A stretch of DNA of 38,337 nt from a virus. Below, piece by piece: positions 5,492 through 15,422 of the stretch. A program made the position numbers and the translations under genes. The notes under the pieces were generated by a model that was not told where the DNA came from, did not search any database, and saw only the letters and a program-made list of their open reading frames with translations. Location of the stretch: positions 1 through 38,337 of the IMG/VR virus record IMGVR_UViG_3300037467_000331; one strand, 5' to 3'. Each line of letters starts with the position of its first letter. Position 1 is the stretch's first letter.

Positions 5492-5722
5492 TTATGCCGC
5501 TAAATGTTTTGGATTTGCTTTATCGAGTAACCATTCTTGAGTCACTTTCCCGTTGCTGTGATCTGCAAGTATTTGTGCATAGTGGGTTTCACCTGTGTAA
5601 TCAGTACGTGGCAAAACACCTTTCTCTGCCATCTTTCTTACAGCTACGTAGGAGATCCCAAGTAAAGATGCTGCGTTGGTTCGCCCACCAACAGCATCAA
5701 TGGCTTGTTGAATAGGATTCAT
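5492..5722 (-). CDS. cro: Cro-like HTH repressor (76 aa)
   Basis: HTH RTNAASLLGISYVAVRKMAEKG. Divergent from the cI-type repressor across a 124-bp operator region. Confidence 0.7.
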   Translation of the reverse strand: MNPIQQAIDAVGGRTNAASLLGISYVAVRKMAEKGVLPRTDYTGETHYAQILADHSNGKVTQEWLLDKANPKHLAA

Positions 5723-5724
5723 AT

Positions 5725-5839
5725 ATTAAACCTTATTTAAACCAATTTCATATTTTTATTAAACCATGAGTTAAAATTAATTTCAACCTATGGTTGCTTC
5801 ACAAACACATTTTTTTAAACGAAAATTTAACCAAAGGTT
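5725..5839. promoter_or_regulatory. OR-like operator cluster between cro and cI
   Basis: TTAAACC heptamers at 5726-5732, 5737-5743 and 5759-5765. Palindromes AACCTATGGTT (5785-5795) and AACCAAAGGTT (5829-5839). Confidence 0.55.
5758..5786 (-). promoter_or_regulatory. Candidate PR promoter for cro
   Basis: The minus strand reads TTGAAA-17 nt-TTTAAT with TG at the extended -10 position (TGGTTTAAT). It is overlapped by the AACCTATGGTT palindrome and a GGTTTAA half-site. Confidence 0.5.
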
Positions 5840-5846
5840 ACAAGTA

Positions 5847-6593
5847 ATGATTGCAATGAGCACAATGGTTGAAAGAATTCAGGATGCCCTGAAAGCAAAG
5901 AAGTTATCTTGGTCTAAAGCTGCTACTTCAATTGGCTTATCTGCTCAAGCTCCAGCAAAGTGGAAAAAGGGCCAGATAAGTAAAGAAACCCTCGATAAGC
6001 TTGCCGCATTACTTGAGGTTGATGCTGGGTGGCTTCTAAACGGGAAAAACCCTGCAAAGATCGATAATTTCAATATGCAAGAGTTCATGGCTAAGCATGG
6101 GCTTACTAAAAAAGAAGATGCATCATTTGATACAGACGACATCATGGATGTGGATGTAGTTGAGTATGAAGTGGCTAACGGTTATGTATGGATAGATGTC
6201 GTGGAAGCTAGTTTTTCATGTGGTACTGGGGAATCAATAGAATTCCATTTTGATGTAATTAATGGGAAATATCCCTTCCCACCTTCATTCTTTCAAAGAA
6301 AAGCAGTTGACCCCAAATGCCTAAAACTTATTAAGGCTAAGGGTGACAGCATGGAAGAGTATATTTTTCATGATGATTTAGTGGGGATTGATATATCACA
6401 AACAGAAATCATTGATGGGGAGATTTATGCTGTTTACTTTGAAGGTGAAGGAATGATTAAAAAGATCTTTAAAGAGGAAGGCGGTACCTTAATACTCCAT
6501 AGTCTTAATGATAAATATCGTGATCGTAAAGTCACTGAACAGAATGGACTCAACTTTAAAGTTATGGGGCGCCAGGTGTGGCGTGCAGGGTAG
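5847..6593 (+). CDS. cI: cI-type prophage repressor, HTH plus S24 (LexA-like) autopeptidase
   Basis: N-terminal HTH (LSWSKAATSIGLSAQAPAKWKKG). C-terminal S24 motifs KGDSMEE (Ser) and GMIKKI (Lys). Candidate cleavage site SC-GTG. The start is ambiguous among the ATGs at 5847, 5856 and 5865; the track start at 5790 lies inside the operator region. Confidence 0.85.
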   Translation: MIAMSTMVERIQDALKAKKLSWSKAATSIGLSAQAPAKWKKGQISKETLDKLAALLEVDAGWLLNGKNPAKIDNFNMQEFMAKHGLTKKEDASFDTDDIMDVDVVEYEVANGYVWIDVVEASFSCGTGESIEFHFDVINGKYPFPPSFFQRKAVDPKCLKLIKAKGDSMEEYIFHDDLVGIDISQTEIIDGEIYAVYFEGEGMIKKIFKEEGGTLILHSLNDKYRDRKVTEQNGLNFKVMGRQVWRAG

Positions 6594-11090: not shown

Positions 11091-11300
11091 ATGTCTAAAT
11101 ATCTCACATCAAAAGAAGTCTGTGAAAGATTTGGAATTACCAAGCAGACTTTAAACCGTTGGGAGAAAGGCACTCAATATGGGGAGCCTTTTCCAGCTCC
11201 GGCATTGCCTTCGATTGGTGGCGGCATGAAACGCTACCTATCAAAGGAGGTGAATCGCTGGGAACGCATTTGTATTGATCGATTCAAAACGGCTGTGTAA
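11091..11300 (+). CDS. xis: Excisionase / AlpA-type HTH protein
   Basis: LTSKEVCERFGITKQTLNRWEK is a MerR/AlpA-like HTH. It is 69 aa and lies directly next to the integrase. Confidence 0.6.
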   Translation: MSKYLTSKEVCERFGITKQTLNRWEKGTQYGEPFPAPALPSIGGGMKRYLSKEVNRWERICIDRFKTAV

Positions 11301-11309
11301 TCAGCCGTT
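11288..11309. other. Hairpin spanning the convergent xis and int stop codons
   Basis: aacggctg-tgtaat-cagccgtt with no flanking T-run. Confidence 0.4.
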
Positions 11310-12528
11310 AATCTTCTATTATTCCATTCTTAATTTTGTCTAATCTATCAATCCACTTTTCATAGATTTCTGCTTGTTCCTTCACGTAGTCATAAAGGTC
11401 ATAAACTTCTTGGATCTGCGGCATACTGTGACCAATCATCATTTCGGCTACATCTCTACGCTCAGTGAATCGACTGAAATTAGTACGTGCTGTACGTCTT
11501 AGGTCATGCATAGACCAATGAGTCATATCTTCTTTTTTGAATCGCTTAACCCAGCCAATTACACTTGCAGATAAGGCAGTTGATGCTGAGCTACTCATGG
11601 CTTCATCTTTTTCGCCATTATTGAATAAGTACTTCCCTTTGCTTAACTCCATTGCCTCTAATATAAGATCTTCCATTTTTGGCAATATTGGGCGAATTAG
11701 TGTCTTATCATTTTTATAGCCTGTCTTATGGTTTTCAGGTGGAACTAACCAGACTTTCTTTTTTAAATCGAAATGTTTTTTCTCAGCTAAACGTAGCTCA
11801 CCTTTACGACATCCATAAATAAGGCAAAGTTGAATAAAGATTTTATTCTTCTCAGTTAATCTGGACCATTTAAGACATTCAAATAAGACTACTAATTCTT
11901 CATCAGTTAATACCCGTTTAGAAGGTATATAAGTAATGTTTAAATCTTCCTTAGGAAAAATATCGGCAAGTACATTAGTTAATACTAGTTTTCTTTTTGC
12001 TGCCCATTTCAACATTTGTTTTATGTTTGATAAAAGTACCTTGGCTGTGCCGGGCTGTTTAGCTGCTAGATTCTCAAATAACTCAAGCCAATGCTCAATA
12101 TCAATGCGCTCAATTGGATATTTACCTAATTGAGGAGATATATGATTCAAATAAGCGCTTTTAACTTGATCATGAAGTTTCTTATTAGGTTTGCAAAATG
12201 ATTCATACCATTTGTCAAATAGCTGATCTAATGTGAGCGGGTCAATATGTTTATTTCGCTCTACCAGAACTTCAACTTTAGGGTTTTTACCTTGCTCAAG
12301 CAATGCCCGCAATCTATTAGCTTCTGCACGGGCATCTTTCAAACTGATATTAGGATATGAGCCTAAATCTAGACGATGCGGCTTACCATTGAAACGGTAG
12401 CGAAGTTGGAAGACAATTTTACCTTTTGCTGATATCCTTGCACTCATTGAGTCTCGGTCAGCAACTTCTTCTACTTTGTCCCGAACCTTGCCATTATTAG
12501 CTTTTAGCCAAGCTTCTGATAGAGCCAT
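11308..12528 (-). CDS. int: Tyrosine integrase, P4-like (N-terminal arm-binding DUF4102-type domain)
   Basis: N-terminus LSEAWLKANNGK...ISAKGKIVFQLRYRFNGKPHRLDLGSYP. Catalytic region GCRKGELR, HDLRRTARTN, GHS and VYDLYDY. Confidence 0.92.
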   Translation of the reverse strand: MALSEAWLKANNGKVRDKVEEVADRDSMSARISAKGKIVFQLRYRFNGKPHRLDLGSYPNISLKDARAEANRLRALLEQGKNPKVEVLVERNKHIDPLTLDQLFDKWYESFCKPNKKLHDQVKSAYLNHISPQLGKYPIERIDIEHWLELFENLAAKQPGTAKVLLSNIKQMLKWAAKRKLVLTNVLADIFPKEDLNITYIPSKRVLTDEELVVLFECLKWSRLTEKNKIFIQLCLIYGCRKGELRLAEKKHFDLKKKVWLVPPENHKTGYKNDKTLIRPILPKMEDLILEAMELSKGKYLFNNGEKDEAMSSSASTALSASVIGWVKRFKKEDMTHWSMHDLRRTARTNFSRFTERRDVAEMMIGHSMPQIQEVYDLYDYVKEQAEIYEKWIDRLDKIKNGIIED

Positions 12529-12544
12529 TATTAAAACTCGCTAG

Positions 12545-12830
12545 AATATGTACACAAAGAGCATCAACAAAAGAATGTGTACACGAATATGTACGCAAAC
12601 CACGTTTGTTGAGGTTTGTCATTATGTTCTAGTTAGTTATAGATAAACAATATAATGGTGCATATTTTATGGTTTTAAGTATTCAGTATGTTCTAGTTTG
12701 ATATAATACTTTCAATAGACTGATATTTGTGCTAAGAATACCTGAGTTATCTATATTTACTATTATTAATCATTAACTTATATACTAGTTTAATAGCTAA
12801 TTTTTATTGTATGTACACCATTCTGTACAC
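12545..12830. repeat. attP-like region with arm-type direct repeats
   Basis: TGTAC(A/G)C occurs in the same orientation at 12549-12555, 12578-12584, 12590-12596, 12812-12818 and 12824-12830. The 12-mer tatgttctagtt occurs at 12623-12634 and 12687-12698. The tract between is very AT-rich. Confidence 0.55.
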
Positions 12831-12955
12831 ATAAAGAAAATTAGCTATTTTTTTTGCTTTCAAGTTGTCATAACAATAAGAACATTTTCCGACCAAATGC
12901 AATCCCTACCACGACACAACTTGACTCATCCATGTTTATCCACAGGTTTTTAAAT

Positions 12956-13010
12956 TTGAATTTATTCAGGCTCAGCTCTACCATTTATTTTGAATTTGTA
13001 ACGTTTTCAA
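12956..13010 (+). promoter_or_regulatory. Candidate umuC promoter and palindromic operator
   Basis: TTGAAT (12956-12961)-17 nt-TACCAT (12979-12984). The palindrome TTGAAtttgtaacgttTTCAA at 12990-13010 ends 8 nt before the ATG. Confidence 0.45.
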
Positions 13011-13017
13011 GATAACC

Positions 13018-14310
13018 ATGAGAGAGCGAATTTTTGCATTAGTCGATGTGAATAACTGTTATGTCAGTTGTGAGAGATTCTTTCAGCCTGAACTTATCGA
13101 TAAGCCAGTAATTGTGCTTAGTAATAATGACGGCTGTGCAGTCGCTCGATCAAATGAGGCCAAAGAGCTTGGCATACGGATGGGTGCCCCACTCTTCCAA
13201 ATTCGAGACATTGTAGAAAGACATAATGTGATTGTGCTCTCAAGTAACTACACTGTCTATGCGGAAATGAGCAAGCGGTTCATGAGTATCTTGCGAAACT
13301 ATGTCACTGAGCATGAACAAGAGGTTTATTCTATTGATGAGTGTTTTCTAGATCTGACTGCCTATTTAAATAATTATGACCTAACTACCTATTGCCATGG
13401 CATGAAGGAAAGGATTTGGAAATGGATAGGCCTTCCAGTATGTATTGGAATTGGCAGATCAAAGACCGAAGCAAAGATGGCTAACCACATAGCAAAGAAA
13501 AACAAACCCTTTGATGGTGTGTGTAATCTAGTTGCAATGGATCCTTGCAATAAAGAATCATACTTATCATCTATAGATGTGTCTGAAGTCTGGGGAGTTG
13601 GCAGACAGCATACTAAAAAGCTAAATACTATGGGAATAAAGACAGTTTTAGACCTTGCCAGCGCATGCCCAGAACATATACAGCAACAGTTTTCAGTAGT
13701 CATGAAGCGAACGGTGTATGAACTGCAAGGCATATCATGCATAGAGATTGAGCATACACCACCAAGCAAAAAACAGATCATTTCATCTAAGTCATTTGGA
13801 CAGAAAGTTACTGAGCTCATAGACCTTCAAGAAGCTGTTTCGCTATACATGCAAAATGCTGTGGTGAGGTTAAGAAAAGATAGACTATTGTGCGGCTGCA
13901 TTATTGTTTTTGCTCAGTCAAACCCATTTGATAAAAACAGACCTTTCTTTAATAGGTCACTTTCTCTACCAGTTGCGGTGCCGACTGACAATGTCTTAAA
14001 GATGGTACAAATAGCCACTTTTCTAATAAGACACCTATATGCACGGGGAATTGAATATAAGAAGTGTGGAGTTATTTTGACAGGTTTAGAGCCTAAAGAC
14101 ACCTTTAACTATGATCTGTTGACAGACTGGAGCAAGGTCGAGAAGGATGAGAATTTGATGACAACTTTAGAACAAGTTGTCGATAAGTTTGGAAAACATA
14201 AAATCGCTGTGGGTAGTTGTAGATTACCAAATAGAGGCTGGTCAATGACCAGAGATAAGCTAACCCAAAATTACTTTAGCTGGGAAGGCTTACCTAAGAT
14301 TAATAACTAA
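13018..14310 (+). CDS. umuC: Y-family translesion DNA polymerase, UmuC-like (Pol V catalytic subunit), orphan
   Basis: FALVDVNNCYVSCERFF, PVIVLSNNDGCAVARSNEAK, YSIDECFLDL and the VWGVGR HhH region, over a full-length 430 aa. No umuD-size ORF is adjacent. Confidence 0.9.
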   Translation: MRERIFALVDVNNCYVSCERFFQPELIDKPVIVLSNNDGCAVARSNEAKELGIRMGAPLFQIRDIVERHNVIVLSSNYTVYAEMSKRFMSILRNYVTEHEQEVYSIDECFLDLTAYLNNYDLTTYCHGMKERIWKWIGLPVCIGIGRSKTEAKMANHIAKKNKPFDGVCNLVAMDPCNKESYLSSIDVSEVWGVGRQHTKKLNTMGIKTVLDLASACPEHIQQQFSVVMKRTVYELQGISCIEIEHTPPSKKQIISSKSFGQKVTELIDLQEAVSLYMQNAVVRLRKDRLLCGCIIVFAQSNPFDKNRPFFNRSLSLPVAVPTDNVLKMVQIATFLIRHLYARGIEYKKCGVILTGLEPKDTFNYDLLTDWSKVEKDENLMTTLEQVVDKFGKHKIAVGSCRLPNRGWSMTRDKLTQNYFSWEGLPKINN

Positions 14311-14436: not shown

Positions 14437-14991
14437 TTACTTCTTTAAAAATAGTGCTCGTTCCGCTTCACGACGACGGACTAGACCAGGTAAAACTTTA
14501 CCTCCTGCCTTTTTCCATGCAAGAAATTGATCAGCAGCACCTTGGTAATCACCTTTGTTAAGCAACTTTAATAAAGTAGAACCTTTAAAAGCACCTGAAC
14601 CAATGTTATAGGTCAATGAAACCAAAGCATCAAATTGATTCTGAGTTAAAGGCACAGTGACGGATTCATTCACAGTCTTTTCAAATTTAGCTAGGTCATG
14701 TTTAAAGTAAGATTTTGCTTGCTCTAATGTGCAAGTGTCGCCTTCCTTAACTTTTACGCCATTTGGATAAACTGTGGTGCCTATACCTATGGTCCATATC
14801 CCAACACCATCGTCGTAAGCTTTCGTTCTAGTGTCTTCAAAGCTAGTGATTAAATTAATACCAATTTCACTTGTGGTTTTCCCGCCTGGTGCAAGTTTGT
14901 CGACAACTTTGTTTAGATCGTCCACTTGTGCTTGTGTGAGTTTTCCGCCAGCAATTACTCGGGCAGCGTCAAAGAAGTTTTTAACTGTCAT
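14437..14991 (-). CDS. Endolysin, GH24 (T4-lysozyme-type) muramidase
   Basis: Catalytic region LITSFEDTRTKAYDDGVGIWTIGIG plus NQFDALVSLTYNIG. There is an N-terminal extension of about 45 aa. Confidence 0.9.
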   Translation of the reverse strand: MTVKNFFDAARVIAGGKLTQAQVDDLNKVVDKLAPGGKTTSEIGINLITSFEDTRTKAYDDGVGIWTIGIGTTVYPNGVKVKEGDTCTLEQAKSYFKHDLAKFEKTVNESVTVPLTQNQFDALVSLTYNIGSGAFKGSTLLKLLNKGDYQGAADQFLAWKKAGGKVLPGLVRRREAERALFLKK

Positions 14992-15181
14992 TTGTTTCTA
15001 CCTTACTTCTATCGTGGCCAAAGTAAGAGTTGACGATTGCACCTGTCCAACCAACTACCGCACCAAGTAAAATATTTACTAAATCTTTATTTTCTTTTGG
15101 AATATCGAAAAAGAATAAAAAGACTAAAATCAACAAAGCCAAGGCAAGTACGGCTATAGTAATAATCTGCTTACTCTCCAT
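14981..15181 (-). CDS. Holin-like or antiholin-like membrane protein with 2 TMDs (66 aa; alternative 71-aa start at 15196)
   Basis: Two hydrophobic helices (IITIAVLALALLILVFLFFF and ILLGAVVGWTGAIV) and a charged C-terminus. Two in-frame ATGs lie 5 codons apart; GGAGGGG precedes the second. Confidence 0.5.
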   Translation of the reverse strand: MESKQIITIAVLALALLILVFLFFFDIPKENKDLVNILLGAVVGWTGAIVNSYFGHDRSKVETNDS

Positions 15182-15422
15182 CGCACACCCCTCCATAACC
15201 CTTCATTCTTGCCTTGTGTTCTAGTTCTTCACGACGATTGCGTCGAAATTGAAAGTAAAAATTCACCAAGAAACCAAGAATTGTAATTATTAAACCGATG
15301 GCGGTAGCTGCGCTGACCTGAAACACCCAGCCAAATACAGTTACACCGCCCCCCGCATACATTGATTTAGTGGCTACTGTGGACGCTGCCACCTCAACCA
15401 TATTTGCTGCCTTATCAGACAT
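15171..15422 (-). CDS. Holin (83 aa, 2 TMDs, basic C-terminus)
   Basis: GGGVTVFGWVFQV and AIGLIITILGFLVNFYF, then RRNRREELEHKAR. First gene of the lysis cassette after a terminator. Confidence 0.55.
   Translation of the reverse strand: MSDKAANMVEVAASTVATKSMYAGGGVTVFGWVFQVSAATAIGLIITILGFLVNFYFQFRRNRREELEHKARMKGYGGVCDGE

Follow-up and report, generated by a model that had tools for sequence, protein, structure and literature searches.

The virus record IMGVR_UViG_3300037467_000331 (38,337 nucleotides (nt); "the window" below is this whole stretch of DNA) carries a lone umuC gene, which encodes a Y-family polymerase, the catalytic subunit of DNA polymerase V (pol V), directly behind a palindrome that equals the operator of the Acinetobacter repressor UmuDAb. 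A lone umuC under a UmuDAb-type operator has already been described and tested in Acinetobacter baumannii prophages, and the window is a new example of it. The gene lies at a module boundary, has a predicted promoter of its own, is transcribed against the lysis operon, and its promoter is found behind varied upstream sequences in related loci. We consider it very probable that a temperate Acinetobacter phage carries this gene as a lysogenic-conversion ("moron") cassette, that the gene would be controlled by the UmuDAb of the host, and that its product would work with a UmuD' subunit that the host supplies.

The putative operator has the perfect arms TTGAA (12990-12994) and TTCAA (13006-13010), with TTTGTAACGTT between them and a G at 13011. 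Its center is the core GTAAC (12998-13002), set off from the arms by the 3-nt spacers TTT and GTT. The site starts 5 nt past the candidate -10 element, and 7 nt (13011-13017) separate the palindrome from the umuC ATG; an earlier note on this DNA, made without database searches, had correctly described the perfect-armed palindrome but placed it 8 nt from the ATG. The form of the UmuDAb operator that the note gave was also correct. The probe used for UmuDAb in electrophoretic mobility shift assays (EMSA), TCGTCAACTTGAAAATGTAACTTTTTCAAGTTACATT (PMC11332147), contains AACTTGAAAATGTAACTTTTTCAAGTT, which shares with the window site TTGAATTTGTAACGTTTTCAAG the arms (TTGAA/TTCAAG), the GTAAC core, and the 3+3 spacing. 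The sites of the UmuDAb regulon have identical arms and a GTnAC core throughout; for binding, the core outweighs either arm, and one arm plus the core is required (PMC11332147). The comparison with published UmuDAb sites that the note had suggested thus gave a match to this probe, and a second one to the site of the A1S_2015 promoter contained in primer P2015EMSAR (see below). The pattern TTGAA-N3-GTAAC-N3-TTCAA occurs only once in the 38-kb window, with all other sites having at least two mismatches, and the match of the palindrome to the experimentally defined UmuDAb operator is far beyond chance. Arms, GTnAC core, spacing, and position within the umuC promoter are all those of such an operator. 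This exact match, together with the homologue A1S_2015, supports the proposal of the note that umuC would belong to the SOS-like regulon of the host.

Scanning IMG/VR for the exact box pattern gave at least 119 loci. Among the matches listed, 50 stand directly before umuC or umuD: a lone umuC follows in 17 cases and umuD or umuD-umuC in 33. The remaining listed matches mostly have spacers containing G+C and recur as identical sequences; most of these non-umu matches look like coincidences within conserved genes. Every lone-umuC locus that we found, in Ab105-2phi, 6 Acinetobacter genomes, and 17 IMG/VR contigs, has the box upstream of the ATG at a distance of 3-7 nt; in the 17 unique lone-umuC promoters, without exception, it precedes the ATG by 7 nt (or by 3-6 nt). 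Among the best 80 genomic relatives, umuC mostly follows umuD. A minority, which includes phage Ab105-2phi, A. halotolerans, A. proteolyticus, and A. bereziniae, has a lone umuC, again preceded by the box with 3-7 nt between it and the ATG.

The identical 22-nt box TTGAATTTGTAACGTTTTCAAG was also seen in four IMG/VR loci with no umuC or umuD nearby (L113 181-202, L136 1919-1939, L138 40-60, and L173 5546-5567). In L136, L138, and L173, 184 nt separate it from a divergent open reading frame (ORF) of about 200 aa that resembles a tyrosine recombinase. These umu-less boxes may be remnants or may mark another member of the regulon. In addition, a perfect UmuDAb-type box was found at 6219-6239 of L146, directly before the ATG of a 78-aa ORF (MDSFMRLHYLKKDQ...).

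The closest studied counterpart is umuC A1S_2015 of prophage CP9 in A. baumannii ATCC 17978. The gene order there is tail fibre (2017), holin, lysozyme (2016), a hypothetical gene, umuC A1S_2015, and the SRAP gene A1S_2014 (Hare et al. 2014, PMC3978071). A1S_2015 is induced by mitomycin in a recA- and umuDAb-dependent manner, and it is found in DNase-resistant particles after induction (PMC3978071). Its promoter fragment is also bound by a second repressor, EppR. The EMSA primers for this promoter, P2015EMSAF (...GAAGAATTTCCGAC) and P2015EMSAR (ACCATTTTGAAATCGTAACAAATTCAAG) (PMC12242105, Table 2), span a region homologous to the promoter cassette of the window, from the TTCCGAC left-edge block at the end of the forward primer to the box and the start codon. 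The same promoter sequence type was found in the IMG/VR loci L098 and L158. Both CP9 and the window have a lone umuC at the prophage end beside lysozyme and holin genes, with the box immediately before the start codon; the promoter cassettes are homologous from TTCCGACC to the ATG, and the genes are of equal length (1290 nt, as measured on the A1S_2015-type gene of L098). The two differ in that the proteins are only 59% identical and the box spacers are not the same. In A1S_2015, moreover, the coding strand has GTTAC as the core, and the box stands 6 nt (or 1 nt, depending on the choice of ATG) from the start, compared with 7 nt in the window. CP9-type loci have an SRAP-like gene before the cassette, whereas the window has DNA resembling a phage attachment site (attP) and a divergent integrase gene instead.

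In phage Ab105-2phi, ORF93 (lesion bypass DNA polymerase V) is likewise a lone umuC at the genome end and convergent with the lysis genes, and its 21-nt box, its -10 element, and the sequence between them are identical to those of the window (CTCAGCTCTACCATTTATTTTGAATTTGTAACGTTTTCAAG). The umuC genes themselves are 60% identical at the amino acid level and about 71% at the nucleotide level, however, and the remainder of the two phages is unrelated at the nucleotide level. The Acinetobacter umuDC operons of phages and chromosomes, such as umuD-rumB (A1S_1174-1173) of CP5, share the cassette and the UmuDAb box, are often convergent with a phage lysozyme gene, and encode UmuC proteins 60-68% identical to that of the window; they have their own umuD between box and umuC, whereas the umuC of the window follows the box directly. 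The enterobacterial umuDC, rumAB, and mucAB systems of phages, plasmids, and integrative and conjugative elements are also mobile error-prone polymerases wired into the damage response of the host. They differ in that some of the phage records annotate a UmuD-like protein under the UmuC match, and in that they would use the LexA box CTGT-N8-ACAG (PMC11332147) rather than a UmuDAb box with a central core.

Aligning 21 diverse umuC and umuDC promoters revealed a common promoter cassette of about 130 bp. Its left edge is the block TTCCGACCAAATGC, upstream of which the loci are mutually unrelated and show the end of an SRAP-like gene (L087, L088, L099, and L158), the end of an integrase gene (L002, L098, L124, L160, and L196), or intergenic DNA. 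In L124, UmuC is 97% identical to that of the window, yet the upstream integrase gene reads towards umuC. The sharp left edge suggests a recombination or insertion boundary. The 133 nt before the umuC ATG retain 71-95% identity to the window even where the synonymous sites of the gene are saturated, and the cassette, as judged from these alignments, moves as a unit.

Several conserved elements were located within the cassette (Table 1). The candidate promoter TTGAAT (12956-12961)-17-TACCAT named in the earlier note is present. It agrees with the sigma-70 consensus at 8 of 12 positions, which is below the threshold of our consensus scan, and it is supported by conservation in related loci: the -10 element reads TACCAT, TAACAT, or TATCAT in the lone-umuC loci and keeps a fixed distance from the box. 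The EppR-like motif TAAATTTGAATTTATT is identical at 15 of 16 positions to site 2 of the eppR promoter, TAAATTTGAATTTAAT, and EppR binding is predicted here from the sequence only. The window holds this single match at up to two mismatches, against 0.13 expected by chance. The boundaries of this motif were derived from the native and randomized competitor oligonucleotides of PMC12242105, Table 2 (two 16-nt sites), and not from the published logo.

The best-conserved elements are the UmuDAb box and TTATCCACA. The latter, which is identical to the DnaA-box consensus, is invariant in 21/21 aligned loci and in 17/17 unique lone-umuC promoters, and is present in 37 of 72 umuD-linked ones. It stands 40-45 nt before the UmuDAb box, with variable flanks. 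Within the window alone, this single-copy motif is not above chance, and its support comes from conservation across loci; the position is shared in L001, L002, L012, L014, L016, L065, L066, L098, L124, L158, and others. None of the top-ranked papers of a literature search, among them those on UmuDAb, EppR, and DdaA, contains TTATCCACA. Upstream of it lies a motif that resembles the site of the WYL activator DdaA, CGWCA-N5-TGWCG (PMC12392091). The last conserved G is a T in the window, where the motif is not above chance by itself; allowing up to one mismatch, it occurs at a fixed distance in 16 of the 17 unique lone-umuC promoters, some of which have a perfect right half, TGTCG or TGACG.

The delimited, sharp-edged cassette and its conserved TTATCCACA and DdaA-like elements may be new. 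That the phage-borne umu promoter is a cassette with four inputs (UmuDAb, EppR-like, TTATCCACA, and DdaA-like) is a tentative idea, which we hold to be rather unlikely. If true, DnaA or another factor acting on TTATCCACA would couple phage pol V expression to replication status as well as to damage sensed through RecA, and such a replication-linked input is not described in the papers on UmuDAb, EppR, and DdaA that this search gave. At a practical level, the well-delimited 130-bp promoter, with conserved blocks that include the undescribed TTATCCACA, is open to mutational testing.

These elements also bear on the possibility that control is exerted chiefly by EppR at the -35, by an upstream DdaA-type activator, or by a factor bound to TTATCCACA, with UmuDAb having a minor role. 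The EppR-like site overlaps the -35, EppR binds and represses the A1S_2015 promoter, related loci preserve both the DdaA-like site and TTATCCACA, and some UmuD homologues have been reported to be regulated by DdaA (Song et al.). However, the induction of A1S_2015 is umuDAb-dependent, the UmuDAb box is, together with TTATCCACA, the best-conserved element, and the DdaA-like site has lost its last conserved G and does not rise above chance in the window. We consider this explanation improbable, and none of the four alternatives to UmuDAb-controlled expression of a working polymerase, of which it is the first, is favored.

The umuC product (N-terminus MRERIFALVDVNNCYVSCE) starts at ATG 13018, since the in-frame TGA at 12991-12993 bars any start codon upstream of it. 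The earlier description of a full-length Y-family polymerase of 430 aa with intact motifs was confirmed by Pfam and by alignment to Dpo4. The domains found are IMS (PF00817, E 3.3e-37), IMS_C (PF11799, E 4.2e-17), DUF4113 (PF13438, E 4.3e-06), and IMS_HHH; the IMS_C little finger, the C-terminal DUF4113 extension, and the length are those of a UmuC (typically about 420-430 aa). The catalytic acidic residues, whose substitution would have spoken against a working enzyme, are intact: D10 and D107/E108 align with the catalytic Asp (D7) and the Asp-Glu pair (D105/E106) of Dpo4, and Y15 aligns with its steric-gate Tyr (Y12). Compared with five IMG/VR relatives of 89-97% amino acid identity, the ratio of nonsynonymous to synonymous substitution rates (dN/dS) is 0.02-0.04, with 44-69% divergence at synonymous sites. 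By this low dN/dS at such a large synonymous divergence, umuC is under very strong purifying selection and is predicted to be a working gene, not a remnant.

Among 185,579 species genomes, the relatives of this UmuC reach at most 68% identity and are nearly all from Acinetobacter or Moraxellaceae, the sole exception being L005, a metagenome-assembled genome labelled Bacteroidales. Homologues are present in 17 Acinetobacter phage records and also in phage records of Morganella, Escherichia, Klebsiella, Salmonella, and Cronobacter.

As the earlier note had stated, umuC has no umuD partner. Searching the window by tblastn with three UmuD queries, one from E. coli and two from Acinetobacter, gave no UmuD-like ORF, with nothing better than E 0.36. 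The note had also named the phage repressor as the only S24 protein; in the part of the window ORFs that was scanned with Pfam, the S24 protein found is indeed this repressor (5790-6593). We found no support for the cleaved phage repressor as a partner of UmuC, its S24 domain being 27% identical to UmuD over 69 aa (E 0.38).

The note had left open which accessory subunit such a UmuC works with; for UmuC2015, this was largely answered in 2026 (PMC13062779). UmuC2015 is mutagenic with UmuD'0636, with UmuD'1174 (in vivo), and with UmuD'1389 (Ojha et al. 2026, PMC13062779), and it forms biochemically active mutasomes with UmuD'0636 or UmuD'1389 (PMC13062779). UmuD'1389 is cleaved UmuDAb, and its pairing with UmuC2015 gave the highest mutagenesis induced by methyl methanesulfonate (PMC13062779). 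A rough neighbor-joining tree of the UmuC proteins of the window and of L002-L081, without support values and with three loci missing, placed the lone umuC genes in no fewer than three groups, with umuD-linked genes in between. It hints, short of a firm conclusion, at repeated loss of umuD or repeated exchange of the cassette.

By analogy with these homologues, the following mechanism appears very likely. In the lysogen, host UmuDAb, aided by DdrR, would most likely be bound to TTGAA-N3-GTAAC-N3-TTCAAG, where it would cover the likely transcription start just past the -10, and EppR, as second host repressor, would most likely be bound over the -35. Upon DNA damage, RecA-stimulated self-cleavage of UmuDAb would free the promoter, and the UmuC then made could join host UmuD' dimers in an extra pol V variant. 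The cleaved C-terminal part of UmuDAb would be the most likely partner, with the UmuD' of a host umuDC operon as the alternative. The phage would need no umuD, as the regulator of the host would double as the missing subunit. This fits a model in which the phage carries only the catalytic subunit and host UmuDAb is the repressor and, once cleaved, the accessory subunit. Prophage error-prone polymerases contribute to damage-induced mutagenesis in Acinetobacter and thereby to the rise of antibiotic resistance; here, the lone-umuC cassette with the host operator is present also in a lineage whose nucleotide similarity to any sequenced phage is confined to short stretches, at most 4% of the 24 kb queried.

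Several observations weigh against this mechanism. Binding, induction, and partnering are carried over from homologues only 59-61% identical, and with 59% identity to the A1S_2015-type protein, the UmuC of the window may differ in its choice of partner. The promoter hexamers are weak by consensus, and reading the sequence before the umuC ATG gave no clear Shine-Dalgarno. The presence of UmuDAb, DdrR, and EppR in the host is deduced from the Acinetobacter affiliation. Finally, UmuC2008, the other lone UmuC of ATCC 17978, was inactive with all three UmuD' proteins (PMC13062779).

The last observation raises the possibility that the umuC of the window is an inactive passenger, expressed without giving a working pol V. 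UmuC2008 is a lone UmuC of the same regulon, and the protein of the window shares only 59-68% identity with its relatives, whether studied or encoded in genomes. Against this stand the low dN/dS at large synonymous divergence, the intact catalytic residues and steric gate, and the length of the gene, which at 1290 nt is that of the A1S_2015-type gene, while the C-terminus of UmuC2008 extends 9-10 residues further. An inactive passenger seems to us unlikely, slightly more so than control by other factors, and a working polymerase under UmuDAb control is preferred.

The window looks like the genome of a temperate phage (Table 1), with a CI-like repressor, a Cro-like gene, an excisionase-like helix-turn-helix (HTH) gene, and a tyrosine integrase gene before umuC. 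The latter is flanked by the integrase gene on one side and by the end of the lysis module on the other. It converges on the minus-strand late genes, in line with the earlier remark that it is transcribed opposite to the late operon: lysozyme and holin are both on the minus strand, and past the holin comes a long series of minus-strand ORFs, the first of which (1039 aa) was taken as the tail fibre. Between umuC and lysozyme no terminator was found, the single terminator-like site (14238-14252, minus strand) being within chance expectation.

Table 1. Features of the umuC promoter cassette and of the surrounding phage genome, in window coordinates.
Feature	Position	Strand	Basis or remark
Cro-like gene	5492-5722	-	
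CI-like repressor (context)	5790..6593	+	Pfam HTH_3 and Peptidase_S24
Excisionase-like HTH	11091-11300	+	
Tyrosine integrase	11308..12528	-	Pfam Arm-DNA-bind_3, Phage_int_M, Phage_integrase
attP-like AT-rich region with arm-type repeats	12529..12886	.	Between integrase and umuC cassette
Left edge of umu promoter cassette, TTCCGACCAAATGC	12887..12900	+	Related loci diverge upstream
DdaA-like motif, CGACA-CAACT-TGACT	12912..12926	+	9/10 compared with CGWCA-N5-TGWCG
Invariant TTATCCACA	12936..12944	+	Conserved across aligned loci
TTTTAAATTTGAA	12948-12960	+	Nearly invariant in 21 loci
EppR-like motif, TAAATTTGAATTTATT	12951..12966	+	Overlaps candidate -35 TTGAAT
Candidate -10, TACCAT	12979..12984	+	Conserved at fixed distance from box
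Putative UmuDAb-type operator (Acinetobacter SOS box), TTGAA-TTT-GTAAC-GTT-TTCAAG	12990..13011	+	Match to EMSA probe
umuC, lone Y-family polymerase (pol V catalytic subunit) gene, 430 aa	13018..14310	+	Pfam, catalytic alignment
Phage lysozyme, convergent with umuC	14437..14991	-	Pfam Phage_lysozyme, E 3.5e-50
Holin	15171-15422	-	

The phage thus encodes an HTH and S24 repressor of its own, and UmuDAb is of the same family of self-cleaving S24 repressors (PMC11332147). The palindrome could in principle be the operator of this CI-like protein, which would put umuC under phage immunity control. We rejected this reading as very improbable: the window contains no second box-like site at up to three mismatches, neither in the cI/cro region nor elsewhere, phages and genomes whose flanking genes are unrelated have the same box before umuC and umuDC, and the palindrome equals an experimentally bound UmuDAb site. 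Least probable of all is that the palindrome arose by chance or acts as a hairpin of the 5' leader RNA, since the arms can pair in RNA (minimum free energy -8 kcal/mol) but the fold is no better than that of shuffled sequences (z = -1.26, with 25/200 folding as well), the conserved, unpaired GTAAC core is not needed by a hairpin, and no other exact copy of the site is present in the 38 kb. UmuDAb control of umuC remains the preferred reading.

The earlier note had placed umuC next to an attP-like region, and an attP at this position is plausible. The AT-rich DNA that follows the integrase gene contains three direct copies of GAATATGTACAC (12544-12599), an inverted pair (12812-12831), three copies of TATGTTCTAGTT within 12623-12795, and a 26-nt inverted repeat (12792-12849); the GAATATGTACAC and TATGTTCTAGTT repeats resemble the type of motif found at integrase arm sites. 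A tRNA-based attP was ruled out, as no tRNA or tmRNA gene was found anywhere in the window.

Finally, the phage backbone (14400-38337) was compared with 50,697 phage records. The best matches cover no more than 4% of these 24 kb and are all small mosaic stretches of Acinetobacter phages. The backbone is new at the DNA level, although the umuC cassette is a familiar one.

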